From a virus (lineage: Duplodnaviria > Heunggongvirae > Uroviricota > Caudoviricetes): a stretch of 40,296 bases of DNA. Within the stretch, counting starts at the first letter, position 1. Each line of letters begins with the position of its first letter. This document shows positions 1 through 15,756 of this stretch, piece by piece. The notes below the pieces were generated by a model. That model made no database searches. It saw only the letters and a list, made by a program, of their open reading frames with translations, and had not been told where the DNA came from. Where the stretch lies: IMG/VR virus record IMGVR_UViG_2585427770_000004; one strand, written 5' to 3'. Both the position numbers and the translations under genes were made by a program.

Positions 1-1158
1 ATGCTCACCGTTAAGCAGATTGAAGCAGCAAAGCCGAAAGAAAAACCATACCGCCTACTCGATGGTAATGGCCTGTACCTTTATGTCCCTGTGTCAGGGA
101 AAAAGGTATGGCAGCTTCGCTACAAGATTGACGGTAAGGAGAAAATCCTGACCGTAGGAAAATATCCGCTTATGACTTTGCAGGAGGCAAGGGATAAGGC
201 ATGGACTGCGAGGAAAGAGATCTCGGCTGGCATCGATCCGGTAAAAGCGAAAAAGGCTTCGTCTAACAACAATTCCTTTAGTGCCATTTACAAGGAATGG
301 TACGAGCACAAGAAGCAAGTCTGGTCAGTAGGCTATGCAACTGAACTTGCCAAAATGTTTGATGACGACATTTTACCCATCATCGGCGGTCTTGAGATTC
401 AGGATATTGAGCCGATGCAACTGCTGGAAGTAATCCGCAGATTTGAAGATCGCGGTGCAATGGAGCGAGCCAACAAAGCCCGCAGAAGATGCGGCGAGGT
501 TTTCCGTTACGCTATTGTCACCGGAAGGGCTAAATATAACCCGGCACCTGACCTTGCTGACGCCATGAAGGGATACCGCAAGAAGAACTTCCCGTTTCTT
601 CCTGCAGACCAGATCCCGGCATTTAACAAAGCACTGGCAACATTTTCAGGAAGCATCGTATCGCTCATTGCGACCAAAGTTTTACGCTACACAGCCCTCA
701 GAACAAAAGAGCTTCGTTCCATCCTATGGAAGAACGTCGATTTTGAAAACAGGATTATCACCATCGACGCCAGTGTGATGAAGGGACGCAAAATTCATGT
801 GGTTCCTATGTCAGACCAGGTGGTTGAACTTCTCACTACGCTAAGCTCAATCACCAAACCAGTATCAGAGTTTGTTTTTTCCGGGCGCAACGATAAGAAG
901 AAGCCAATCTGCGAGAACGCGGTATTGCTTGTGATCAAACAAATTGGCTATGAGGGTCTGGAAAGCGGTCACGGATTCAGGCATGAATTCAGCACAATTA
1001 TGAACGAGCACGAATGGCCTGCTGACGCTATTGAAGTGCAACTGGCACATGCCAACGGCGGATCTGTGCGTGGGATTTACAACCATGCTCAGTATCTCGA
1101 TAAACGCAGAGAAATGATGCAATGGTGGGCGGACTGGATTGATGAAAAGGTGGAGTGA
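1..1158 (+). CDS. int: Tyrosine integrase (P4/IntS-like family)
   Basis: 385 aa; N-terminus MLTVKQIEAAKPKEKPYRLLDGNGLYLYV typical of P4-type integrases; C-terminal catalytic region with HGFRHEF (HxxR) and RGIYNHAQY (Tyr nucleophile). Confidence 0.9.
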   Translation: MLTVKQIEAAKPKEKPYRLLDGNGLYLYVPVSGKKVWQLRYKIDGKEKILTVGKYPLMTLQEARDKAWTARKEISAGIDPVKAKKASSNNNSFSAIYKEWYEHKKQVWSVGYATELAKMFDDDILPIIGGLEIQDIEPMQLLEVIRRFEDRGAMERANKARRRCGEVFRYAIVTGRAKYNPAPDLADAMKGYRKKNFPFLPADQIPAFNKALATFSGSIVSLIATKVLRYTALRTKELRSILWKNVDFENRIITIDASVMKGRKIHVVPMSDQVVELLTTLSSITKPVSEFVFSGRNDKKKPICENAVLLVIKQIGYEGLESGHGFRHEFSTIMNEHEWPADAIEVQLAHANGGSVRGIYNHAQYLDKRREMMQWWADWIDEKVE

Positions 1159-1375: not shown

Positions 1376-2803
1376 ATGGAGTTAATTATGTTCAGAAATC
1401 AATATGCTATATCAGACGCTTCACTAAGTGGTAACATCAGTCCTGACATGGAATGGCACAGGATGAGCATATACCTAGGAGAGGGGGCAGAGGTTTTCGC
1501 TAATGACAATTGCATTATCATAGGTAAAGTCGTCAATAGCTGCGACCCTAGCATGTCCCCTAATGATATAGCAGACGCTGTATCATCATGCGACAGCATT
1601 GAAAGTGTTTTTGAACTGACTGATGGGATGGCAGGAAGATACATAATCGCTTTCATCATAAACTCAGAGGTATATATGCTCACTGATGCTTGCGGATTCA
1701 AAAGAGCTCTATTTATGAGGTATAATGGTGCTAAAATAATAACATCATCTGAAAATTACGCCGCTCACATATTTGGGTTTAACATTGTCATTAATGAAGA
1801 TATAAAAGATATGATGCGGGATGAATCCTACAGAAGAAAAGAAAGCCCATGGTTTGGTTTGACTTCTCCAGATGAAAGATTCAGTTATTTAATACCAAAT
1901 CACTACCTGTATATAGGTGATTTTACGTTACATCGCATGCCCCCGCCAAAAATTGGTGGTGATGTAATTACCAGCGCATCATCAATGATAAAGAATACAA
2001 TTTTAGCACTTTCTGAAAGGTATAAGTTGATACAGCCTATAACGGCTGGCATTGACAGTAGGATTCTTCTTGCAGCATCTGAATCAGTTAAAGATAAAAT
2101 CGATTATTATGTATTTGGAGACGAAAACTCAAACCACGAAGATGTGTCCGTTCCTAAAGAGCTAGCAAAAATAGTTGGCGTAAATTTTAATGCAATCACC
2201 CCTCCGTCAGCACCAGATGAGTTCAAAAAGAAAATCGAAATGACAGTTCTTAGTGGTAGGGATTTGCCAAAAATAGATAATATATACTATCACTATAAAA
2301 ATTCTAACTTTGAAAAAGTAAACATCAATGGTAATGGCGCAGAGATATTCAGGTCGTATTATGGCGCGTCGATATTAGAGTTTAGCGCCAAGTCACTCTC
2401 TATACTTTCTGGAACTAAAAAATGGCCCATCATGGAAAGAAAGATTTATGATTGGCTAACATTAACTGAAGCCAAAAGATTTTCTCAAGAGAACAACATA
2501 TCAATTACCGACCTTTTCTATTGGGAGCAAAGAATGGCAATATGGGGGTCTATGTTCCCTTTAGAGCAAGATATCGCAATGGATGAGGTGTCGCCATTCA
2601 GCAATAGAAAGCTAATTTTCACAATGCTGAGCGAATCTTCAAGCAAACGTAGATCACCAGACTTTAAATCGGCAACTTTGTTAATTAATTTTATGGATGA
2701 CAGATTAAATAAAGTGCCTGTAAATCCAAAATCATCAAACCATATTATAAACTTTATAAAGGCCCATACAATAACTCAGTTAATTGTTAAGAAAATAATC
2801 TAA
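1376..2803 (+). CDS. Asparagine synthetase (AsnB)-like synthetase-domain protein without N-terminal glutaminase cysteine; cargo gene
   Basis: 475 aa, markedly AT-rich by eye; segment GRYIIAFIINSEVYMLTDACGFKRALFMRYNGAKIITSSE resembles the AsnB GATase-II fold, but the N-terminus is MELIMF with no Cys2; degenerate PP-loop ITAGIDSRILL in place of SGGxDS. Confidence 0.45.
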   Translation: MELIMFRNQYAISDASLSGNISPDMEWHRMSIYLGEGAEVFANDNCIIIGKVVNSCDPSMSPNDIADAVSSCDSIESVFELTDGMAGRYIIAFIINSEVYMLTDACGFKRALFMRYNGAKIITSSENYAAHIFGFNIVINEDIKDMMRDESYRRKESPWFGLTSPDERFSYLIPNHYLYIGDFTLHRMPPPKIGGDVITSASSMIKNTILALSERYKLIQPITAGIDSRILLAASESVKDKIDYYVFGDENSNHEDVSVPKELAKIVGVNFNAITPPSAPDEFKKKIEMTVLSGRDLPKIDNIYYHYKNSNFEKVNINGNGAEIFRSYYGASILEFSAKSLSILSGTKKWPIMERKIYDWLTLTEAKRFSQENNISITDLFYWEQRMAIWGSMFPLEQDIAMDEVSPFSNRKLIFTMLSESSSKRRSPDFKSATLLINFMDDRLNKVPVNPKSSNHIINFIKAHTITQLIVKKII

Positions 2804-2871: not shown

Positions 2872-4518
2872 TTAAATTATTGATAGCGTTCTGATTTCAT
2901 TCCCGACCGGTGATGTCATAACTATCCGTGTTACGTTAGCGCCGGACACCGTATACGTCAGAATTATGTTACCAGCGGTTCCTATATTAAAGTTTTGTTT
3001 AGCCCCTGATGAACCTATAGCTTTGGCATTCGTTAAAGTATACGTATTACCTGAGGTAAATCCTGTAGAAATTACAAATTGTTGATCAACTTTAAAAGGA
3101 ACTGTCATTGTTACGGATGTTGACTCGACAGTAACAAATGGCAGGCTAGGCTGTTTAACCCCCGTCACATCCCAGAACTCACAGTCGCGCACCAATGCTC
3201 GACTAATTAAACCGCGAGTTACAGGGAAGGTTGTCTGGTCCTGCGATAAGAATGCCCCAACGATTTGCACGTTATCGAGCGTAATATCGTGTACCGTGGT
3301 CCCATCTATAGGACTTAACGTTGGTGATGCACTCCAGAGTTTACCCCCCTTCATTTTGATACTCACAGGGGCATTTGGGTCTCCACCATAATATGCACGG
3401 ATACGCTCAAATTTACAATCTGTGAGTTCATAGCTGCCGCGTTGATTGGTTTCGAACATTGTGTAAGCCTCGCCAGGCACGCCATGTCTAACATTGCTGG
3501 CAACAACACGGGGGTTATGTCGGAACGATGCCGACGTAACAGAGAAAACCGGCGCGCAGACATCATTGATTATAATGTCCGTGGTATAACGCCCTGTAAC
3601 AGCGTTCTCAGAGTTACTCATATCCGAATATAGCGCTTTAAAACGGGAGAAGTCTATGTTAAGCCCAACCCCTGCGCTTTTCGGGAGGGGGCCAAAATCA
3701 AGCCCGTCAATAACAATTTTCTTAGGGAAGTAAAGAGTATCATCACGGCCCACAGTTATTAAAGTTCCAGGGTAAGTAGACACACTTCCTGGATAAACTT
3801 TAATATCTTTCAGGGTGATATTATTAAATAACGTAGGACTTATAGGCGAACCGCTACTCGGCCCTTGCCCGGCAGTGACGGCAGCATTGATAATGCCGTT
3901 ACCTGGAACGCCGTTACGCAAACCAGTTAGCTTGATATTCTCCATGTATAAATCACCATCAAAGTAACCACCCGCATCTGAGCGAGTTGCAATGATGTTT
4001 CCAGGCATGTCTGGCGATGAATTGAATGTTGAGTTTGTGACGTACAGGTCGCCAATCCCTGTTACAAGAACCCCGCTGCGGCCGATGTTGCAGTCATTGA
4101 TTTTTAAGTAGTTCTGGAATGGCATATGGAAATCAATCCGGCTTAAGTCGCACCTTTCAAATCGCACATTTGCACAATTATTGCTGCCAGTTGCGCCCCA
4201 CCCTTCCCCGTTTGCGGTTGCGTTTTTGATAGTTACATTCATTGAGTTACCCAACCCGATGGTGTAGGAGTAGATATCTCCCGTTCCTGTGAACGAGTCG
4301 GCAACCGAGGGCGCGAATAACCCATCAACGATGACATCGTAGCTTTCGTTGATTTCAAGACGGCTATCGCTGAAGTTTTGTGTTAGCGGCCTATTAATAA
4401 ATGAAGTATTAATCAGGCGAACTCGTGACGCTTGATTAATGTAAATAATTCGATAATTCTTTGTAAGACTTTCATCTATGGTTAGACCTTTAATAGTTTG
4501 CACGATTACGCGAAACAC
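2872..4518 (-). CDS. Orphan right-handed beta-helix protein (tailspike receptor-binding / polysaccharide depolymerase-like) lacking a head-binding domain
   Basis: 548 aa rich in G/N/T/S/V runs typical of pectate-lyase-like beta-helices (e.g. NGVPGNGIINAAVTAGQG); GTG start at 4516-4518 with an in-frame stop 10 codons upstream; no P22-type N-terminal adaptor; lies 78 bp downstream of the UmuD'-like gene on the same strand. Confidence 0.5.
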   Translation of the reverse strand: MFRVIVQTIKGLTIDESLTKNYRIIYINQASRVRLINTSFINRPLTQNFSDSRLEINESYDVIVDGLFAPSVADSFTGTGDIYSYTIGLGNSMNVTIKNATANGEGWGATGSNNCANVRFERCDLSRIDFHMPFQNYLKINDCNIGRSGVLVTGIGDLYVTNSTFNSSPDMPGNIIATRSDAGGYFDGDLYMENIKLTGLRNGVPGNGIINAAVTAGQGPSSGSPISPTLFNNITLKDIKVYPGSVSTYPGTLITVGRDDTLYFPKKIVIDGLDFGPLPKSAGVGLNIDFSRFKALYSDMSNSENAVTGRYTTDIIINDVCAPVFSVTSASFRHNPRVVASNVRHGVPGEAYTMFETNQRGSYELTDCKFERIRAYYGGDPNAPVSIKMKGGKLWSASPTLSPIDGTTVHDITLDNVQIVGAFLSQDQTTFPVTRGLISRALVRDCEFWDVTGVKQPSLPFVTVESTSVTMTVPFKVDQQFVISTGFTSGNTYTLTNAKAIGSSGAKQNFNIGTAGNIILTYTVSGANVTRIVMTSPVGNEIRTLSII

Positions 4519-4596: not shown

Positions 4597-4983
4597 TCAC
4601 TTCAGCGGGTAGTCATCAAACTCACCATAACGAGCATCGTTAATGATGTATGTGATTACGCCAAATATCGCATCAGGGCTCGTTCCGTCATCGTGCAGAG
4701 GTATAGCTTCCCTTCTTCCTGTCTGCAAATCTTCCAGGTGAACCTTGGGTGATTTTCGGTATCGCTTAATCCTCAGCTCACCTTCCATTCTGCAAACAAG
4801 TAATGAGCCGTCGCATGGTGATAGCGAAGCATCCACAACCAGCAGCGCGCCATTCAGGATACCTTCCCGGTAGTGCGTCGCACCCGCTCGCATGAAGTAC
4901 GTTGCCGCTGGCCTGCTTATGATGCACTTGTCGAGCGATATGCGCTCTTCAACGTAGTCTTGTGCTGGACTCGGGAATCCCAT
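4597..4983 (-). CDS. UmuD'-like protein (S24 peptidase fold; HumD-like analogue of processed UmuD)
   Basis: 128 aa starting MGFPSPAQDYVEERI, matching the region immediately after the UmuD Cys24-Gly25 cleavage site (GFPSPAADYVEQRI); the ASGDSM serine motif appears replaced (AGATHY); RBS GGAGGTG upstream. Confidence 0.7.
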   Translation of the reverse strand: MGFPSPAQDYVEERISLDKCIISRPAATYFMRAGATHYREGILNGALLVVDASLSPCDGSLLVCRMEGELRIKRYRKSPKVHLEDLQTGRREAIPLHDDGTSPDAIFGVITYIINDARYGEFDDYPLK

Positions 4984-5118: not shown

Positions 5119-6216
5119 TTGGAAATCGATAACAGTCCACCAAGAAAGAATAACCTTCAGTATATACAGGCGCTTAGGGCTATTGCAGCTATGCTTGTCG
5201 TACTTTGCCATGCAAGGGATTTTTTGAAAGGAACAGAATATGAATGGCTGGCTCAGCGATTATTTTGGCCTGGTGCATTCGGAGTTGATTTATTTTTCAT
5301 CATTAGTGGTTTTATCATAATTTATACGTCTCATAGCTACCAAAGCAATGATTTGATAAAGTTTATTAAAAAACGTTTCTTAAGAGTTTGGCCTCTATAT
5401 TTCATCATGACTATTGCATATATAGTCATTGTTAAAAATGTTGATTTATCTTTAATGCATGGGTTTTCATATAACCAATCATCTAGCTCATTTGAATTAA
5501 CAAACATAATCAAAGGTTTGCTTTTCATTCCACTAAACACTGAGTCACCTATATACTTTGGGCCTCCATCATTGTTCGTTGGATGGACCCTCAATTATGA
5601 AATATATTTTTATTTAGTTTGCGCCATTGGAATAGCGCTGGGGAAGTTTAGGTATACATTTTATATATTATGGTTTTTCATTACACTGTTAGCTTTGCCA
5701 TCTATTGCGGGTGTATTCGACAGACCAAAAATTGAAGGTTTAGGATATATAAATTTAACCATGCAAAGCCTGATTTGGGAGTTTGTCTTCGGTGCGATTA
5801 TTGCTATCCTATACAAAAGTGGTAACTTTTCAATTAGAGACAAAAGGATTGCAATACCATTAATTTCGATTGGAATCATAATCCCTGTATGGGCTTACAT
5901 AACACAGTTTGATGCTGGGCATGGGATTTTTCATTCAGGGAAATATTTTTGCATAATGTTTGCATGCTTTACTGCATGCTCTGACTACATACAAGACAAC
6001 ATCAAAATACCACGTATTTTCATCATGATTGGTGATGCTTCATACTCTTTGTATTTAGTTCATCCAATTACGTTTATATTATGCTTTAAGATGATAGATT
6101 GGCTTGGGATGGCTGATTTATCAAAAAGCTTCTCGTTTATTTTTATTGTATTTATAACATCTGTAGCTTTTGCACTACTAAGCTATAAATATATCGAGAA
6201 AAATATTCCAAGATAA
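5119..6216 (+). CDS. Membrane acyltransferase family 3 (Oac/OafA-like O-antigen acetyltransferase); probable lysogenic-conversion gene
   Basis: 365 aa, polytopic and hydrophobic; N-terminal motif IQALRAIAAMLVVLCHA typical of Acyltransferase_3; TTG start at 5119 with no in-frame ATG before the motif; AT-rich. Confidence 0.75.
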   Translation: MEIDNSPPRKNNLQYIQALRAIAAMLVVLCHARDFLKGTEYEWLAQRLFWPGAFGVDLFFIISGFIIIYTSHSYQSNDLIKFIKKRFLRVWPLYFIMTIAYIVIVKNVDLSLMHGFSYNQSSSSFELTNIIKGLLFIPLNTESPIYFGPPSLFVGWTLNYEIYFYLVCAIGIALGKFRYTFYILWFFITLLALPSIAGVFDRPKIEGLGYINLTMQSLIWEFVFGAIIAILYKSGNFSIRDKRIAIPLISIGIIIPVWAYITQFDAGHGIFHSGKYFCIMFACFTACSDYIQDNIKIPRIFIMIGDASYSLYLVHPITFILCFKMIDWLGMADLSKSFSFIFIVFITSVAFALLSYKYIEKNIPR

Positions 6217-6223
6217 TTTTGAA

Positions 6224-6246
6224 GCGGCATGTTTGAAACATGCCGC
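6224..6246. terminator. Bidirectional terminator between convergent acyltransferase and tailspike genes
   Basis: Palindrome GCGGCATGTTT-G-AAACATGCCGC flanked by T/A runs in the 36-bp gap between 6216 and 6253. Confidence 0.6.
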
Positions 6247-6252
6247 TATTGG

Positions 6253-8175
6253 TTAGGCAGAAATATTCACAATCCCCCATGTACTTCCATTCCACACCCA
6301 TTGGACAGTAGGGTCGGAAGGATATGTTGCTGGAGATGTTCTGTAGGACACCAAGCCGATTGGGAAAGAACCTGTGTTCTCTGTCACAGTAGGCTTTACG
6401 CTAGATCTCATTTTTACTTTCTCCCATCCGCAGAATACTGGAAGAAAGGTTCCGTTATACGGGCTAAAATACGCTCCTCCAACATAAGCGCTCATTCCGG
6501 ATTCAACTGTAATCCTTAATCTGTATGCTTTACTTTTGTCGTTGGTTGGCGCTGAAACTTTGTATAACTTCCACCCTCCAACACCCATATCGTAGAACTT
6601 ATTAACTGACATATAGATGGAATTAGTACCATCTTGGGCTTCTATAGCTATCTCAAGTGGTGTGTCGCCTTTAAAGTAAAAAGCTCCACGAATGAAACCT
6701 GTCTGTGTTTTAGTTAAATTTAGGGTTATTCTGCAAAGTTGAGATGCGTTAGTGACTCCAAACCATCTACCGCAGCCAGATGGTTCATTAGGGTCAGAAC
6801 CAACCTTTCGTTCGTTCGGTATAATTAAAAGGGAATAGTCAATAGGTGCTCCGTAGACTCCATCAATAACCGACCAATCTCCAGAAGGGCAAAGATTAGA
6901 ACCGGAGACACTGAACGTATCTCCTCCCTGTGCGCCTGCTGTAGGGTCTGTCCCTAATATGGTATTCATGGGGCTCATGGTTGAGGCCCAGTTACCATAT
7001 TGCACACGCGCGCCAAGTATGGTCCACGGCCCACGTATTTTCCCATTGCCCGTAACCTCGCCATACAAACCTATCACAACATTATGCTGATTTGGGGTGC
7101 TATTGTTATAGAGCAAATAATCGCCGCTTCCCGATGTGTCAAGACCTATAAATGTGTTTGCGTTCCCCTCATACGGAGCACCGGTCTGGCGACTAAAACC
7201 CGATCCAGTTATGATCAGACCACCACCGCAAAGCTGCTCAAATGTATTTTGATTTATAGATCCATCAGAGATGTCAATTATGAATCTGCCACCACCTGAC
7301 GTAGTACCTGTTTTGATGCGTACAAATTGATTCCAAAAACTCCCGCCACCCCATTCAACCAACCCAGGCAGAGTGTATGCGTCTGATGATAAAAATCTTA
7401 TATCGCCGGTCGTATCAATGTTCGAGATAATAGAAAACTGTAGCCCTCTAATGTATAACGATTTACATGAAAGGCCAGTTACATTTATAGATTTACTATG
7501 AAGGATTAGGAAATCCCCGTTAGGGATTCGGCCAACACAATCAACGTTACAGCGGATCACAAAGCGACCAGCAGAAGCATGAATGCCAGTCAGCTTGGTC
7601 ATATCAACGACATAATCGCCTGGAGGGATATGCAATGATTTTCTGTTTTTCCCATACTCAACTAATTGTGAATAATCACCGTTAGCATAATCCAATGCCT
7701 CACACAGTTTAGCAGTAACATCTGTACCATCCGGGAATACTCCCCATCCACGCACGTCTAAATCATCACGCCAGCGATAAATCTGCAATGCGGGATATTT
7801 GGTTGCCCCATCAGGGTCTTCAATCTGCTGCCTTAACTGATCTGGATCATACTTCAACACGTTTGGATAGTTGAACTGCTGTGTACCATAAGCATCGTAC
7901 ACAGCCATAGAATGGCCTTGCACGGTAACGAATTTGGCAATCTGTCCGTTATATACAGGATAACCAGCAGCGTTAATGATGATTGGTTGCGAAACAGGAA
8001 CGTGAGAGCCGTCTTCGTTCTCCACATAAACCTGAATCTGGTTTTCAGGATTTACCGGGTCAGTGTCAATTTTACCGATATAAATTTTGCCATTGGCAAC
8101 CGCTTTAAAAGAACGCGCCATAGTGAAGAGTTGCGAAGGCATGCTTACTACAACATTGGCTGTAATGTCTGTCAT
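6253..8175 (-). CDS. Tailspike protein (P22 gp9 family) with conserved N-terminal head-binding domain and divergent receptor-binding domain
   Basis: 640 aa; N-terminus [97 protein letters not shown] matches the P22/HK620/Sf6 adaptor domain as recalled; the remainder is beta-helix-like but unrecognised. Confidence 0.9.
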
Positions 8176-8233
8176 TTAATTTGCTCCAGATACAAGGAAT
8201 CGCCGCAGCGTAGCTACGGTGAATTTTGGGCAT

Positions 8234-8256
8234 AAAAAAACCCAGCCGAAGCTGGG
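8234..8256 (-). terminator. Rho-independent terminator between ant and tailspike
   Basis: Minus strand reads CCCAGC-TTCG-GCTGGG followed by TTTTTTTATG. Confidence 0.6.
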
Positions 8257-8275
8257 TCGTTGCGTTGGTTATCTG

Positions 8276-9154
8276 TCAGTAGTTATGTACTGAAGGAGGC
8301 AATTCTTTATTCTTAAGTCTCATCCATGCGGAAAGATTCGTTGGTCCGTCTGGCTCATTAATATCAACATCTCGTGTGTGGTTTATTAAAACGTCTCTCG
8401 CCATTCCGATAACATACGAGAATTCATGACCGTAGTCGTAGCATCTGCCGGAATAGTTCGATTGAATTTGTTTTAGCGCCGGATACAGTTCGCGGAATAA
8501 TGCCTGTGAGCGGTTGGCATAATCCCATAACCATACAAGGCTGTTTGCTTCTTTTGCAGAAAGCTCGTTGGTTTTCTTCTCTTGTTTGCCAATGAACTCA
8601 CCTTCAAGCACTACCCTGTGGATGTACTCTACGGCCAGCGGGATTTGTTCAATTGAAAGTTCATCAATGCTGTCAATACCAAAACGCTGATGAACCATAT
8701 TGTATGCATCGTCATAGCGAAGTCCTTTCCTTCCTACCAGCATGTTTACTGCATCGCGTAGCGGTGTTCTTTCCTCAACAGTGGTTTTCTTTCCTTTTAC
8801 ATACTCGCCATGTTTGCGAATTGAAGGCAGAACTTCTGCTGTTACCCACTTGCGGAATTTGTGCGGGACTGAACCTTTATTGACTGCATCGCGGCAGCGC
8901 AGAACCAATGTATACATACCTGATTCGCTCACAATGCTTAGATTCTGCTCACCACCAAGGGTGTAACTTAAAGTTACTCCCTTTTCATCGTCATCAAGTG
9001 CAGTAAGCGCCTTGCGTGAGTTAGTCAAATCTAAAGCATCACAAACATCTTTAGCTACAAACCACGGCTCACCGCACTTGTTGATGACGCGGATTTCACT
9101 GTCGCCGAATTTGAAGATGGTGAAATCGTTTTGTGCCTTTGCTATACTTTTCAT
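8276..9154 (-). CDS. ant: Antirepressor Ant (KilA-N/Bro-N type)
   Basis: 292 aa directly downstream of arc on the same strand; N-terminus [30 protein letters not shown] matches the antirepressor N-terminal domain. Confidence 0.8.
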
Positions 9155-9222
9155 GTCAATATTTCCTAATCCGATTTGTTGATGCCGAAGCCCTGACTGT
9201 TACAGCAGTTGGGGCTTCAACT

Positions 9223-9384
9223 TTACGCACCAATGCGCCCTTCCTTCTTAAAGCTTTCCATTACTCGCTGATAAATCTCAGAATTAACAGACCGACCATT
9301 TTCTTCCGCCACCTTGCGTACCAAATCCAATACTTCTTTAGGCCACCGCAAATTGAACTGTGGCATTTTGCTCATTCCTTTCAT
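9223..9384 (-). CDS. arc: Arc repressor
   Basis: 53 aa MKGMSKMPQFNLRWPKEVLDLVRKVAEENGRSVNSEIYQRVMESFKKEGRIGA, essentially P22 Arc as recalled; the track ORF 9223..9447 extends upstream over the operator. Confidence 0.9.
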   Translation of the reverse strand: MKGMSKMPQFNLRWPKEVLDLVRKVAEENGRSVNSEIYQRVMESFKKEGRIGA

Positions 9385-9399
9385 GTTCACCTCACAATA

Positions 9400-9418
9400 T
9401 AGGTCCACGGTGGACCTA
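9400..9418. promoter_or_regulatory. Mnt operator (O-mnt)
   Basis: Perfect 19-bp palindrome TAGGTCCACGGTGGACCTA between arc and mnt. Confidence 0.75.
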
Positions 9419-9426
9419 TTGAGAAT

Positions 9427-9447
9427 ATAGTAGAGTGCTTCTATCAT
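9427..9447. promoter_or_regulatory. Arc operator (O-arc)
   Basis: ATAGTAGAGTGCTTCTATCAT is the reverse complement of the recalled P22 arc operator ATGATAGAAGCACTCTACTAT. Confidence 0.75.
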
Positions 9448-9474
9448 GTCAATACACTAACTTGGAGTGATGGC

Positions 9475-9729
9475 ATGGCTAGAGATGATCCGCACTTTAA
9501 CTTCCGTATGCCTTTGGAAGTAAGAGAAAAATTGAAATTAAGAGCCGAGGCTAACGGAAGGTCAATGAACTCTGAGTTATTACAAATCGTTCAGGATGCA
9601 CTATCAAAACCATCACCGATTACAGGATATCGCGACGAAGCTGAACGCTTGGCTGATCAGCAGGCTGAGCAGTTCAAGGCTATAGTGTTTGAGACACTTA
9701 AAAAGATTTATGAAAAGGATTTGAAATGA
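9475..9729 (+). CDS. mnt: Mnt repressor
   Basis: 84 aa MARDDPHFNFRMPLEVREKLKLRAEANGRSMNSELLQIVQDALSKPSPITGY, near-identical to P22 Mnt as recalled. Confidence 0.9.
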   Translation: MARDDPHFNFRMPLEVREKLKLRAEANGRSMNSELLQIVQDALSKPSPITGYRDEAERLADQQAEQFKAIVFETLKKIYEKDLK

Positions 9730-10061
9730 GATTTCTATCACTGTTCTTGTTAGCAGTTGTCTCTTCTTCCAGTGCTGAGCTGCGCGAGCTTCAAACGGGT
9801 AATGACCTTCTTTACAACATTCAACAAGGTAAAAAGGGTGATGATTTTTCATCGCTTTACATTACTGGATATTTGCGCGGAGTAACTGACTCATTGATAC
9901 TAATTGGTTCTCTATGTCCTCCTGATGGCGTTGACATGTATCAATACACCGATATCGTTGAGAAATATCTAAACAAAAACCCAGAATCAAGAAATGAGAG
10001 TGCAGTTATACTAACCGCCCTAGCAGTAGGAAAAACATTTCCGTGCAAAAAGAATCAATAA
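9726..10061 (+). CDS. Secreted/periplasmic protein of unknown function (signal peptide), translationally coupled to mnt
   Basis: 111 aa; N-terminus MRFLSLFLLAVVSSSSAEL is signal-peptide-like; two Cys; ATGA start/stop overlap with mnt. Confidence 0.5.
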   Translation: MRFLSLFLLAVVSSSSAELRELQTGNDLLYNIQQGKKGDDFSSLYITGYLRGVTDSLILIGSLCPPDGVDMYQYTDIVEKYLNKNPESRNESAVILTALAVGKTFPCKKNQ

Positions 10062-10076
10062 CAATAAGGGCTTAAA

Positions 10077-10466
10077 ATGAAATTGATTATAGCAATGGCT
10101 TTCCTTGTCTTCTCGTTTTCTGTCTCAGCAGAGTGCTGGGTCGTTGGAGATATGCACGGAATAAGCTATTCAGAACGAAATAATTTTCAACCGGAAGAAG
10201 ATGGTTTTAGTGGAACATTCATCATTAAGACAAACGGTGAAGATGCCAGTATCACATATTCTGGGACGGATGCGGGCGGCATGGCTTACAAAGCATTGTC
10301 TAAAAACTCCATCATTGGAATCGGCGCGAATGGCGAAACTCAACGAGTTATCGACTCATGGGTAATACATCCTAATGGAACAGTTTTAATGTCGAAAACC
10401 ATTTCTGGTTATGGGAATATGGATTCAACCAAAGCTTTTGTTGGAAAAGTAAAAAGAAAATGTTAA
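10077..10466 (+). CDS. Secreted/periplasmic protein of unknown function (signal peptide)
   Basis: 129 aa; N-terminus MKLIIAMAFLVFSFSVSAEC is signal-peptide-like; RBS AAGGG upstream; C-terminal KRKC. Confidence 0.5.
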   Translation: MKLIIAMAFLVFSFSVSAECWVVGDMHGISYSERNNFQPEEDGFSGTFIIKTNGEDASITYSGTDAGGMAYKALSKNSIIGIGANGETQRVIDSWVIHPNGTVLMSKTISGYGNMDSTKAFVGKVKRKC

Positions 10467-10490
10467 CGATTGAATCCAATTCCCCATACG

Positions 10491-12332
10491 TTACTGCTGT
10501 GTTGCCTCAGTAGCAAGCAGCGGCCTGATGGCATTTGCAGCGTTACTCAACGCTCTTTCATAGGCTGGCGTTCCAGCTTTAGTGTTTGCCAGACGTAAGA
10601 GAGCATTCCTTGCTGCTTTGGACTCATACAAACGCATCATTGCACCAAAGCCAGCCTCAAGCCCCATTGATACACCAAGAGTCGCAGTTGCGCCAATCGT
10701 CCTTATCCTGTTGGCTTGTGATTGCCCCGTCTGAGTTACTACATTTGCAGTGTCTGACCTTGCTGTTTGCTGTAGAACTTCATGAAGAGCATCAAGCTCT
10801 TTCATGTGCTTTCCAGAAAAAATAGTGTTGTAAATTTCACCGCCTGACTGAGATTTCAGCTTATTAACTTCAGTGATGAACTTGGCTGGAGAGTCACCGG
10901 CCTTTTCCGCTATTTTGCTGACGTAAGCTGCACGCATAGCATCTTTCCCTTTATCATCCAGGGCGCTCCATATTCGTTTCACGTCAGATGGTTTTCTGCT
11001 TAATACAACGGTATTTATAAGTTCAGGACTGGCTTCACTGCTTGCCTTGTTGAGCTTGTTAGCAATGTTTTTATTAAGCACCTTATTATAAACGTTTGCA
11101 TAATCGGAATTTGCTTTAAGGTATTTTGCTGCGTCTGATGCACCGAGGTTTTTAGCAACTGCGTTACGAAGGTCTTTTGACATTGCATTCTCTACCATAT
11201 TGGTAGCTGCTTTTGCCTGGTTGGGGAAGACCATAGCATCTCCCTGAACATTAGATCTAAATGCTGTTCTGTGCTGACGCAAGAGATCAAACGTAACATC
11301 CAAATCAGTTGCAGGGTTTGCTAATTCTTCACGTAGGTTACGCAAGGATGTAAGCAGGCTTTGATTGGCAGACGTCCCAAGCCGTTCCTGTCTTGCGATC
11401 GCTGTATTCAGAGCATTCATGGTATTTGTGGTATCAACTGCGGCATTACCCATTTTATTGGTGACGTCATTGATAACAGCGCCAGCGGCATCCTTCCGCC
11501 CCCTTAACGTGGTGGTAAGAGATTTCACCACATCATCAGGGTTGTACTCACCAAAACGGTCAAAATAATTACTTACCAGCTTACTACGCGTTGCATATTG
11601 CTCCGCTCGCTTTGAGCCTGTCCCTAGCAAAGCCCCCTCGGCATCCTGAGTTAGGCCGCGAGTGAAAGCATTTTTCGGCGGGATAACATCAGATGTCATT
11701 GGTGTCACGCCCATCGATTCTGATGTGGCAATTTTCTTCGCCACTTCTGGCGCAATATCACCTTTTATAGCCGTTATTCCACGCCCTATTCCCTTTGCTG
11801 CTGCGGAAAGAACACCCTGAGTGGCAAGGTTAACTCCGGCATTTTTAGCTGCATTTTGTGCGAAATCGCCTTTCTGATTTGCGGCCTCTGCCAGTGATCC
11901 AATAGCCATGCTTCCTGCCGTTCCAACTCCTGGAACTAAATACCCACCAATTGTTTCACCGGCTTGCGCGTAGGGGTCTGTCGGTCTGTCTACTGGACGA
12001 TAAACATCATCCAAAACCTTGGGTCCACCAAGCCCCTGACTGATTGCATTAATCAGACTTGCGCCGCCCTGCAATACGTCAAATGGTATGTTTACCAGAC
12101 CACGACCAGCCTGTTCTGCAATTTGCCCTGCACTTTGACCACCAGTGAGCCAATCGCCAGCTTGTTGCATCAATGATGGTTCTTCCCGTGTTGGTGCATT
12201 ATTGGCCTGATTAACTGTTTGTTGCTGAACAGCCTGACCAGCAAAATACTCATCAATGGCGGTGCCAATATCTTCGGTGCTCGTACCATCAGGAAAGGTA
12301 AATGTCTTACCGTTTGCAGTTACTTTCATCAT
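10491..12332 (-). CDS. DNA ejection/transfer protein gp16
   Basis: 613 aa; N-terminus [33 protein letters not shown] matches P22 gp16; true start may be the second ATG at 12329 (ATGATGA overlap with the gp20 stop). Confidence 0.85.
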
Positions 12333-13754: not shown

Positions 13755-14450
13755 TTAATAAAGCAGTGAACCAAGCAGACCGATACCAGCACCGATACCA
13801 GCCCCCCACGGAGTTGATGAACCAATTAATTTCGCAAGTCCAGCCCCAGCAATAGCACCAGACGCACCTCCGCCAATAGCAGATTGCATTGCTGATGGTC
13901 TGTTGGCATTTGCCGCTGCAAGAGCCGCACTTTGCTGCGAAATCTGACTCATGTTGTTGGCATATGTCTGCCCGGCGTTTGCCTGACCTTGCAGTGCGCC
14001 AAGACCAATATTTGCCAGATTCTGGTAGTTGTTCATCTGACCAGACAGCCACTGCTGACCAAGCGTTGGTGCGATTGTTGCTAACTGATTACCGGTTGCA
14101 GTGGAACCCAATCCACCTGTTGCTTCCGCTGCCGCCAGACTCTGATAGCGAGCCTGACCAGCAAGATCTTTGTACTGCTGAGAGTTGTAATACTGGTTAA
14201 GTGCCTGACCTTGCCCTTCCAGAGACGATAAGTTCTCGAGGCTGCCGACATACTTATCAGCCAGAGGAGTAAACGGCTTCAGGTTGTTCATGATGGTGTT
14301 GAACTGCTGATTTTGCAGGTCTGCGGCATACTTCTGAGCTTCTGCTGCATACTTTGCGCTTTTATCAGAGCTGCCACCTTTCCCGCCTTTTTCAGGGCAA
14401 TAAGGTTCCTCGCCGCGCAGTTTTCTGCCCAGCTTAAATGCATATAACAT
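13755..14450 (-). CDS. DNA ejection protein gp7
   Basis: 231 aa, Gly/Ala/Gln-rich with glycine-rich C-terminus; P22 gp7 size and position. Confidence 0.75.
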   Translation of the reverse strand: MLYAFKLGRKLRGEEPYCPEKGGKGGSSDKSAKYAAEAQKYAADLQNQQFNTIMNNLKPFTPLADKYVGSLENLSSLEGQGQALNQYYNSQQYKDLAGQARYQSLAAAEATGGLGSTATGNQLATIAPTLGQQWLSGQMNNYQNLANIGLGALQGQANAGQTYANNMSQISQQSAALAAANANRPSAMQSAIGGGASGAIAGAGLAKLIGSSTPWGAGIGAGIGLLGSLLY

Positions 14451-14452
14451 GG

Positions 14453-14908
14453 CTATCTCCCGTGATTCAGGAAGTCGATTAGTTCTTCGCGTGTGGCGCT
14501 GTAAAACGTCACGTCATCCACGCCTTTGAAGTATTTCTTGATGGTTCCTACACGATTAAGGCCAATCATTGCGCAGTACATCTGACCGTGGCGGAATTTG
14601 CGTGCAGCGAACGATGTGACGCACTGAACGGTGGTGTTAGTCAGAATGTATCGCCAGAACGCCAGCCCGATTTCCTTGCTGAATCCACGAACCTCTGGCA
14701 GGTACATGGCGTGGCAATCGAATGTAAGCGGCTGAATTTCCTGATAGTAAACAATGCCGCCAAACTGACCGTACACGTTAACCTCAAAGTAACGGCATTC
14801 AGGCTTGTAGTCGTATCCATCACCGTTGTTGCTTCCGGCAATAATGTCAGGGTGATTTCCGACTGCTTCTATCAGGTCGATGTTTCGCGTTGGTTTGAAC
14901 TGAATCAT
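14453..14908 (-). CDS. Head assembly protein gp14
   Basis: 151 aa; position between tail needle and gp7 in conserved P22 order. Confidence 0.65.
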   Translation of the reverse strand: MIQFKPTRNIDLIEAVGNHPDIIAGSNNGDGYDYKPECRYFEVNVYGQFGGIVYYQEIQPLTFDCHAMYLPEVRGFSKEIGLAFWRYILTNTTVQCVTSFAARKFRHGQMYCAMIGLNRVGTIKKYFKGVDDVTFYSATREELIDFLNHGR

Positions 14909-15756
14909 TACTGCTCCGCGATTATCTTGATGGTTGTGGCAGTAAACGCCGCACCATTTGACTGAATGGTTAACGTGCTGCCATTTGTGGCAAGAAAGCC
15001 GTCTTTATCCACGCTGAAGAACGTAGCTAACAGGATGTTATCGGTCGTTGTCGCCGAGTTGCGACTGCTTACCAGTGTGTCAGGAACAGAGCCGGAAAAT
15101 GTTAGTTGCATTGACCTGTTGTCGGTTCCGCTGGGCCACGTCCCGACGATCGACAGCTTAAAGAACAAGGTTTTGTTCTCGTTGAACACAACCATCTTGT
15201 TGTTAACGGTGTCGAAGAATGGTGCCAACGAGCCTGATGACGGCGTGAGCGTTTTCAGCAGGCTAACAAGGTTGGTCGGCGCTGTCGGGATGGTTACAGA
15301 TACGCCAGAGTAAACAACCTCTGACTTCTTGCGAGTAGTGGCATACTCCAGAGCATCAATGCGCGATTCATGGTCTGAAACCTGCGATTCCAGCGACTGA
15401 ACTCTGGTATCAAGCGACGCAATATCGCTTTCATTCTGAGCGATTCGCGTTTCATGTTCCTGAAGAGTTGATTCTGCCTGGCTGATTCGCTCCTCATGAT
15501 TAACAAGCGTTGCTTCCGCAGCAGAAATTCGCTGCTCATGGTCAGCGAGAATCACATCCTGCTCATCGTTCCTGACCTGTGCATCATAAGCGCCCTGTCC
15601 GGCCTCGTTGGCCTTGTTAGCCACGTTACCAACATCAGTGCCCTGTGCGATAACGTAAAGCAGATACGACTGCGAGAAGATATTGCGTGGAAGAACTGAT
15701 GTATCGAGCCGCGTAGCCTGGATGATTACCGGCACATTGAGATTCGAATCCGCCAT
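14908..15756 (-). CDS. Tail needle protein gp26 with extended C-terminal (knob-type) domain
   Basis: 282 aa; N-terminus [20 protein letters not shown] followed by heptad coiled-coil ([43 protein letters not shown]); longer than the 233-aa P22 needle. Confidence 0.8.

Follow-up and report, generated by a model that had tools for sequence, protein, structure and literature searches.

In the slot between the tailspike gene and attP/int, phage P22 carries gtrABC and phage Sf6 carries oac. The seroconversion chemistries known to us among enterobacterial phages are glucosylation, O-acetylation and a switch of polymerase linkage, all of them carried out by membrane proteins. Within O-antigen gene clusters of bacteria, AsnB homologues of the WbpS/WbtH type convert the carboxylate of a uronic acid into an amide (PMC7468200). 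Here we analyse X, our name for the product of an open reading frame (ORF) at 1376–2803, or 1388–2803, on the plus strand of a 40,296-nucleotide stretch of viral DNA (IMG/VR record IMGVR_UViG_2585427770_000004). This whole stretch, the window hereafter, is identifiable as a P22-like genome whose backbone resembles those of phiv205-1, Kapi1, CUS-3 and HK620. In such phages X holds the same slot as gtrABC and oac, between tailspike and attP/int and outside the late operon, and its composition is atypical; like the cassettes of P22, Sf6 and D3 (iap/wzy-beta), it is low in GC and is retained in decayed prophages. The known conversion cassettes encode glucosyl-, acetyl- or polymerase-type membrane proteins that work without ATP, whereas X is predicted to be soluble and of the ATP-pyrophosphatase type. 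On balance, we favour a reading of the predicted structure and the gene neighbourhoods in which X would form amides at the expense of ATP and independently of glutamine, would in this way tailor a surface polysaccharide and would serve as a lysogenic-conversion gene.

The ORF at 1376–2803 encodes 475 amino acids beginning MELIMF, exactly as described in a sequence-only reading of the window, although the start adopted there is probably not the one used. A start at the ATG at 1388 (M5 of the longer form), giving a protein of 471 residues beginning MFRNQY, appears likelier than one at 1376, which would add MELI. The 1388 start is taken because a Shine-Dalgarno-like GGAG (1378–1381, plus strand, read from the sequence) lies 6 nt 5′ of it, because database copies of the protein are 471 residues long and because the family N-terminus is conserved as M-[FY]-[RK]-N-Q-Y, with Q5 present in 60 of the 61 sequences of our family alignment (A1). 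The coding sequence of X is thus 1388–2803 (471 codons plus stop), and residue numbers below follow the 471-residue form unless stated. An in-frame TAA at 1367–1369, just upstream of both candidate starts, excludes any upstream extension; an intact glutaminase domain encoded from an upstream start, the outcome that the sequence-only reading had named as fatal to its own proposal, was looked for and is ruled out. X is under purifying selection, with a ratio of nonsynonymous to synonymous substitution rates (dN/dS) of 0.17 in comparison with the ortholog of Enterobacter hormaechei (84% identity), and its GC content is 36%, compared with about 45% in the flanks. Twelve nucleotides 3′ of the stop codon lies a hairpin with a perfect 13-bp inverted repeat (2815–2847; arms ATCAATATCGGGG and CCCCGATATTGAT, loop of 7 nt) that folds as RNA with an energy of −24.3 kcal/mol (z −5.0) and is a probable terminator; a simple terminator scan did not call it. 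Some Enterobacter copies of X are pseudogenes, split into two ORFs of about 244–248 and 219 residues, as at 578–2002 of locus L069 and in E. hormaechei DPF84 (AWX00806 and AWX00807).

On structural modelling and profile alignment, X is a soluble enzyme of the AsnB/beta-lactam synthetase superfamily with a dead N-terminal nucleophile (Ntn) domain and an intact-looking PP-loop. The AlphaFold model obtained with A1 as input (predicted local distance difference test score 95.6, predicted template modelling score 0.94) has two domains: an Ntn-type domain with the class II glutamine amidotransferase fold (1388–1957; residues ~1–190) and a C-terminal PP-loop ATP-pyrophosphatase, or synthetase, domain (1958–2800; residues ~191–471). 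Its closest structural relatives are carbapenam synthetase CarA (1Q15) and beta-lactam synthetase (beta-LS; 1JGT, 1M1Z), at 10–15% identity, and those of the PP-loop include QueC, TilS and Cap9; Foldseek left the order unchanged, with CarA and beta-LS on top. Global hhalign of A1 against a four-sequence alignment (Escherichia coli AsnB and, from loci retrieved here, three AsnB-like proteins of canonical type) aligned X 1–471 with AsnB 7–487 (probability 89.5%, E 2.3e-7). Against the AsnB sequence alone only the PP-loop was aligned, and both the four-sequence alignment and the global mode were needed. The AsnB/PP-loop fold is thus recovered by profile and by structure. The resemblance to AsnB, barely detectable by sequence, is real at the level of fold and profile, and it covers the whole protein and not merely the central segment to which it had at first been assigned. 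With a maximum hydropathy of 1.36, X has no transmembrane segment and is therefore taken to be soluble.

The degenerate PP-loop noted at the outset, TAGIDS (2042–2059; residues 223–228 of the 475-residue form and 219–224 of the 471-residue form), is confirmed. Together with the following Arg (2060–2062) it forms the variant T219-A-G-I-D-S-R225 (2042–2062, plus strand), which aligns with S235-GGLDS of AsnB, so that the SGGxDS loop of PP-loop ATP pyrophosphatases is represented by TAGxDSR, from which ATP binding is predicted. T219, G221, D223 and R225 are invariant in all 61 family members and the Ala is kept in 58. Indeed, some 45 positions of A1 are invariant or nearly so, including G83-R84, D100, W379-E380 and N446, and acidic residues, of a kind usual in ATP pyrophosphatases, are conserved at D252, E319, E380, E393, D395 and E400. 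The glutaminase site is a different matter. In the hhalign result, a low-identity profile alignment on which the residue mapping depends, Met1 of X lies opposite Val7 of AsnB, so that X begins past the position of the catalytic Cys, and I45-G46 lies opposite the oxyanion residues N75-G76; a Cys occurs within the first 10 residues of only 3 of the 61 family members. Compared with AsnB (E. coli, 1CT9; human ASNS), X thus has neither Cys1 nor an equivalent of the oxyanion Asn and carries TAGxDS instead of SGGxDS, while TsnB9 hydroxyamidotransferase (7YLZ) keeps in the alignment the Met-Cys start of AsnB, which X does not have. Since its Ntn domain has lost the glutaminase nucleophile, X cannot draw ammonia from glutamine. 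The sequence-only reading was right that the nucleophile is missing and that X should not hydrolyse glutamine, a point to which Ile45 and the upstream TAA add; the Ntn-type domain itself is nevertheless present, though catalytically dead. In the synthetase domain, G315-N316-G317 lies opposite G-E348-G of AsnB and E319 opposite E352. The E348 position is presumably that of Tyr348 in beta-LS. On this alignment-dependent mapping X lacks the Tyr-Glu-Lys set of beta-LS and CarA, having Asn316 and no Lys opposite AsnB K449, and its setting is that of glycan clusters and prophages instead of beta-lactam gene clusters. As far as the alignment tells, the acceptor site of X is unlike those of its characterised relatives.

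X belongs to a large family that profile databases do not cover. Single-sequence searches of Pfam, NCBIfam, PHROGs and PDB sequences gave no significant match, the best of these profile signals being a weak one to NAD synthase (E 0.079) over the PP-loop. X falls below all Pfam thresholds for PF00733 (Asn_synthase) and PF13537 (GATase_7), and so differs from glutamine-hydrolysing AsnB in the gathering threshold as well as in the nucleophile and oxyanion residues. Scanned singly, none of the 61 family members matched PF00733, 11 matched GATase_7 weakly (best E 1.3e-4) and a few matched QueC or other PP-loop models. The family profile run against PDB sequences found only matches at E>0.1, to PurF-type Ntn domains, and did not recover beta-LS or CarA; BFVD held only remote AsnB-like viral proteins. 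A homology search returned 152 relatives at E<=0.001. The best 120 of these 152 carry no precomputed Pfam domain, and two of them were automatically named 'Asparagine synthetase domain-containing protein' in UniRef. When 1.84 billion representatives were searched exhaustively with the family profile, 5,970 were found at E<=1e-3, 3,646 at <=1e-10 and 1,737 at <=1e-30, the 5,970 being representatives at 50% identity. Fifty loci drawn from species-representative genomes are spread over a wide range of lineages: Thiotrichales, Methylococcales, Marinobacter, Halomonas, cyanobacteria, Planctomycetes and Fibrobacteres, as well as Nitrospira, Brocadia, Deferribacteres, Acidimicrobiia and Bacillales (Brevibacillus, Paenibacillus). 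Close copies (at least 84% identity; the cluster has about 100 members) occur only in E. coli and the Enterobacter cloacae complex, where the label is 'hypothetical protein' or, in occasional entries, 'Glutamine amidotransferase type-2 domain-containing protein'. A literature search turned up no paper on the family. New here is a large, uncharacterised, glutaminase-dead family with no Pfam, NCBIfam or PHROG model and tied to polysaccharide loci. One member was also seen in a giant-virus metagenome-assembled genome (MAG; L074, IMGVR GVMAG-M-3300001589-9, GC 23%) at 22–1470, with the PP-loop TGGTDSR (EQDIAIEEFSPFNN) and eukaryote-like neighbours with tubulin-tyrosine-ligase and MIF4G domains.

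Outside phages, homologues of X lie in surface-polysaccharide loci in most of the loci examined. We surveyed the three nearest ORFs on each side in 42 genome loci, 236 ORFs in all, and counted Glycos_transf_2 24 times, Epimerase/GDP_Man_Dehyd 12, Glycos_transf_1 7, Wzy_C 7, Polysacc_synt (Wzx) 5, UDPG_MGDP_dh 5, WecG 4, and PS_pyruv_trans, Polysacc_deac_1, Polysacc_lyase_14 and Asn_synthase twice each. The two nearest non-phage relatives (47–50% identity) stand within clusters of glycosyltransferase (GT), Wzy, Wzx, aminotransferase and acetyltransferase genes. By precomputed Pfam annotation the Symbiobacter homologue is placed between GT2 genes and a Wzy/Wzx/EpsH/Wzz block; the order in Thioalkalivibrio is Wzx, pyruvyl transferase, X homologue, UDP-sugar dehydrogenase, GT2 and EpsG, and a further homologue adjoins PIG-L, formyltransferase and Bac_transf genes, while three more contexts were ambiguous. 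With GT2, GT1, Wzy, Wzx and sugar-nucleotide genes as neighbours, and with the tailspike slot in phages, the tailoring of a surface polysaccharide, one of the roles that had been offered for X, is the reading best backed by context. Canonical AsnB-like genes with an MCG start are found a few kb from X homologues in three unrelated MAG loci (L038, 3069–4943; L060, 9585–11432; L040, 11392–13263), directly adjoining the homologue in L038 and L060. Because such genes stand beside its homologues, X belongs to a family of its own and is no degraded copy of them, and glutamine-dependent and glutaminase-dead enzymes may work in one pathway. The same loci set X apart from the WbpS/WbtH type. The two are alike in superfamily and in their surface-polysaccharide loci, and the function of X is proposed by analogy, but the WbpS/WbtH enzymes are MCG-start, glutamine-dependent members of PF00733, which X is not, and genes of that canonical kind are separate from those of the X family in all three loci.

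In prophages, X is found with tailspikes. The gene that faces it in the window (2872–4518, minus strand) encodes a headless tailspike remnant of 548 residues with no head-binding domain, and X is transcribed convergently to this remnant and to the late operon, with the hairpin in between. Full-length relatives of the remnant are a 658-residue tailspike in E. coli strain ANT (98% identity, at the C-terminus), one of 843 residues on the IMG/VR contig L068 (89%) and one of 847 residues in E. hormaechei (87%). On L068 the order is int, X and the full tailspike, which has a P22/Sf6 head-binding N-terminus; in the E. hormaechei prophage it is int, S24, X and the Tail_spike_N protein, and the tail type differs. 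One receptor-binding domain accompanies X on three Enterobacterales phage backbones. The domain is 82–98% identical between the window remnant, E. coli ANT of serotype O38, L068 and E. hormaechei, four settings in all, so that X and this domain move together as a cassette. The remnant is also 59% identical to the tailspike of Shigella phage MK-13 and 49% identical to rtp50 of phage Rtp; it is speculation that the target is a polysaccharide common to E. coli and Enterobacter, such as enterobacterial common antigen (ECA) or colanic acid. In strain ANT (L001), two copies of the insertion sequence (IS) IS1, at 9841–10538 and 14321–15018, bracket X and the tailspike; one of them separates X from an acyltransferase gene, and the prophage is truncated by an IS1-mediated deletion.

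The pairing extends to Gram-positive hosts. Four Bacillus-type prophages from IMG/VR (L070–L073, GC 35–38%) encode X homologues of 499–500 residues at ~5300–12100 that are 27–32% identical to X and keep all family motifs. The order is tail protein, minor tail protein, tail spike (phrog_7458), the X homologue directly after it and, later, an endolysin, for which the PlyG cell-wall-binding domain was confirmed in L071 and L072. A Wzy_C membrane protein of 414 residues lies between the homologue and the endolysin in two of the four (L070 and L072), an arrangement that can be likened to serotype-conversion cassettes and that is possibly a surface-polysaccharide conversion module of Gram-positive phages. 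The recurrent pairing of the X family with tailspikes in unrelated prophages is new. X itself was not found by tblastn against 50,697 deposited phage genome records.

Under the reading that we favour, ATP-Mg would bind at the PP-loop and X would adenylate a carboxylate carried either by a sugar or by a substituent in the repeat unit of a cell-surface polysaccharide; its substrate might be a unit linked to undecaprenyl or else a nucleotide-sugar. An amine from a source other than glutamine, whether free ammonia, an amino acid or the glycan's own amino group, would then capture the acyl-adenylate and give an amide, by which an acidic group would be neutralised or decorated. Expressed from the prophage, X would work as a lysogenic-conversion (serotype-conversion) gene and would be passed on in one cassette with the receptor-binding domain of a tailspike, of which that polysaccharide is presumably the target. 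With its receptor modified, the lysogen would be shielded from superinfection and would present a changed antigen. Several observations weigh against this reading. By the hhalign mapping, X does not keep the residues on which its characterised relatives rely, there being no conserved Lys/Arg column opposite AsnB K449 and an Asn at the E348 position, so that the catalytic mechanism is an extrapolation. Some homologues lie in contexts with no polysaccharide genes, and the neighbouring ORFs of the survey were called crudely, as the longest non-overlapping ones. A Ugd-like dehydrogenase was present within 8–10 kb in only 10 of 57 loci, a pyruvyl transferase in a few, and no single partner gene across the loci defines the carboxylate; a uronic acid is a plausible substrate and, with a Ugd-like gene near so few of the loci, remains a guess. 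The carriers of X are spread over E. coli O38, E. coli O91 and Enterobacter, which singles out no one host polysaccharide, and a simple promoter scan of the 229-bp spacer upstream of X (1159–1387) found no sigma-70-like site.

A narrower form of the same proposal, which we judge unlikely, is that X attaches glycine to glucuronic acid (as GlcA6NGly) in the E. coli O91 O-antigen, or carries out a similar amino-acid ligation. X is present in 5 of 5,426 complete E. coli genomes, three of which are O91 (2017.06.05CC and IZSBS22, loci L013 and L014, with X at 9001–10416, and GPEC1292) and two, strains ANT and DAM, O38. In the three O91 genomes the prophage, situated between dacD and sbcB, has decayed until no ORF but X is intact; X stands amid IS3, IS150, IS30 and IS621 debris and a group II intron, and the remnant lies ~10 kb from the his-wzz-ugd-gnd-O-antigen region. 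O91 is the E. coli O-antigen with amide-linked glycine (PMC7685785), and the O91 gene cluster, inspected in strains with and without X, encodes no ligase for it. Against this, X is absent from 24 of the 27 genomes with the O91 wzy, and neither the matches listed nor the O91-wzy genomes yielded a further family member from E. coli. One prophage remnant is common to all three O91 carriers, so that they count as one acquisition; moreover, the remaining two carriers are O38, for which a literature search found no O-antigen structure, and X is commoner in Enterobacter than in E. coli. The glycine-ligase idea was largely set aside on the strength of the 3 of 27 O91-wzy genomes and the common remnant.

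Somewhat less probable still is that the target of X is the tailspike or some other protein of the virion, modified by isopeptide or lactam cross-linking or by side-chain amidation, much as lasso-peptide cyclases act on peptides. The adjacency to tailspikes in Gram-negative and Gram-positive prophages, the one receptor-binding domain with which X travels and the cyclase activity of its closest structural relatives, CarA and beta-LS, would all fit such a role. It is weakened by the convergent orientation of X to the late operon, beyond which it lies in P22-like phages, by the intact X genes where the tailspike is deleted (the O91 remnants) or decapitated (the window), and by most family members residing in non-phage polysaccharide clusters with no tailspike.

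Nor do we give much weight, and marginally less than to virion modification, to X being an anti-phage defence protein, a nucleic-acid-modifying PP-loop enzyme of the QueC, TilS or Cap9 kind, or an inactive pseudoenzyme moron. The int–tailspike slot of prophages also hosts defence genes, the PP-loop relatives include those same enzymes, and X does not conserve AsnB's catalytic residues. However, PADLOC-DB gave no significant match (best PD-T4-6, E 0.032 over 35 residues), the many invariant positions and low dN/dS argue for an active enzyme, and the genomic context is one of glycan biosynthesis. Amidation of peptidoglycan, at meso-diaminopimelic acid (mDAP) or iso-Glu, as by the AsnB/LtsA-type enzymes of Bacillus, Listeria and Corynebacterium, seems very improbable. 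The mDAP-amidating enzymes of this type have an N-terminal Cys, depend on glutamine and are canonical members of PF00733. They share the AsnB fold with X, and two reports describe AsnB homologues that amidate mDAP in Listeria and Bacillus (PMC8554201, PMC5485061). X has neither the PF00733 match nor the Cys, and its neighbourhoods are polysaccharide clusters with no murein genes. Finally, we can give hardly any credence to a lasso-peptide or other cyclase of peptides that are made on ribosomes and modified post-translationally (RiPPs), an alternative raised at first sight, or to a small-molecule synthetase of the beta-lactam type: lasso cyclases do belong among the glutaminase-less AsnB homologues and CarA and beta-LS head the structural matches, but neither the window nor the ~60 homologue loci have a precursor peptide, a B-protein/RiPP recognition element, a transporter or beta-lactam pathway genes beside X, none of these loci has a RiPP or polyketide context, which sets X apart from McjC-type cyclases and TsnB9, and X has an Asn opposite AsnB E348, presumably the Tyr348 position of beta-LS.

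The region around X holds several further genes. An IntS-type tyrosine integrase (1–1158, plus strand; Pfam Phage_integrase, Phage_int_M and Arm-DNA-bind_3) precedes the spacer at 1159–1387, which presumably holds attP; intS is also annotated in related E. coli prophages. Beyond the tailspike remnant lies a HumD/UmuD-like S24 peptidase of 128 residues (4597–4983, minus strand; Peptidase_S24, E 1e-8), annotated as HumD family in strain ANT, and the same type of S24 gene flanks X in that strain and in the Enterobacter prophage. It is followed by a membrane acyltransferase (5119–6216, plus strand; Acyl_transf_3, PF01757, E 1e-28; GC ~33%) that is Oac-like, probably an O-antigen acetyltransferase of the Oac type; the region is 99.8% identical in E. 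coli NCTC9038. The sequence-only reading had set this gene next to X; it lies 2.3 kb away, with the tailspike remnant and the humD-like gene between. With the acyltransferase and X, the window holds two candidate glycan-modifying morons. A complete tailspike with the P22-type head-binding domain (6253–8175, minus strand; PF09008, E 8e-66) comes next and is followed by an antirepressor gene. The window thus contains two tailspike genes, one complete and one a decapitated receptor-binding remnant, and the remnant looks like the fossil of a tailspike-module replacement by recombination.

The superfamily and the general chemistry proposed for X are already known; what would be new is ATP-dependent amidation as a type of lysogenic conversion, which stands as a prospect. 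A bolder claim, which we hold to be possible though doubtful, is that X founds a new class of phage receptor masking, in which a cytoplasmic, ATP-dependent and glutamine-independent amidoligase would neutralise or decorate a carboxyl group of the O-antigen, ECA, colanic acid, capsule or other acidic polysaccharide at the surface and would be mobile, as a two-gene cassette with its cognate depolymerase tailspike, between unrelated Gram-negative and Gram-positive phages. The family of ~6,000 clusters might then supply the enzyme for many amino-acid and amide substituents of polysaccharides, with the glycine on the O91 glucuronic acid as one candidate. X is an entry to a large family that extends over many phyla, in loci whose genes for amide substituents are often unassigned, and the confident structural model and the list of invariant residues make the family directly testable. 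If the reading that we favour is true, a single soluble phage protein would provide a new way for prophages to rewrite antigens and block superinfection, with a bearing on serotyping, on host range in phage therapy and on glycoconjugate vaccines.

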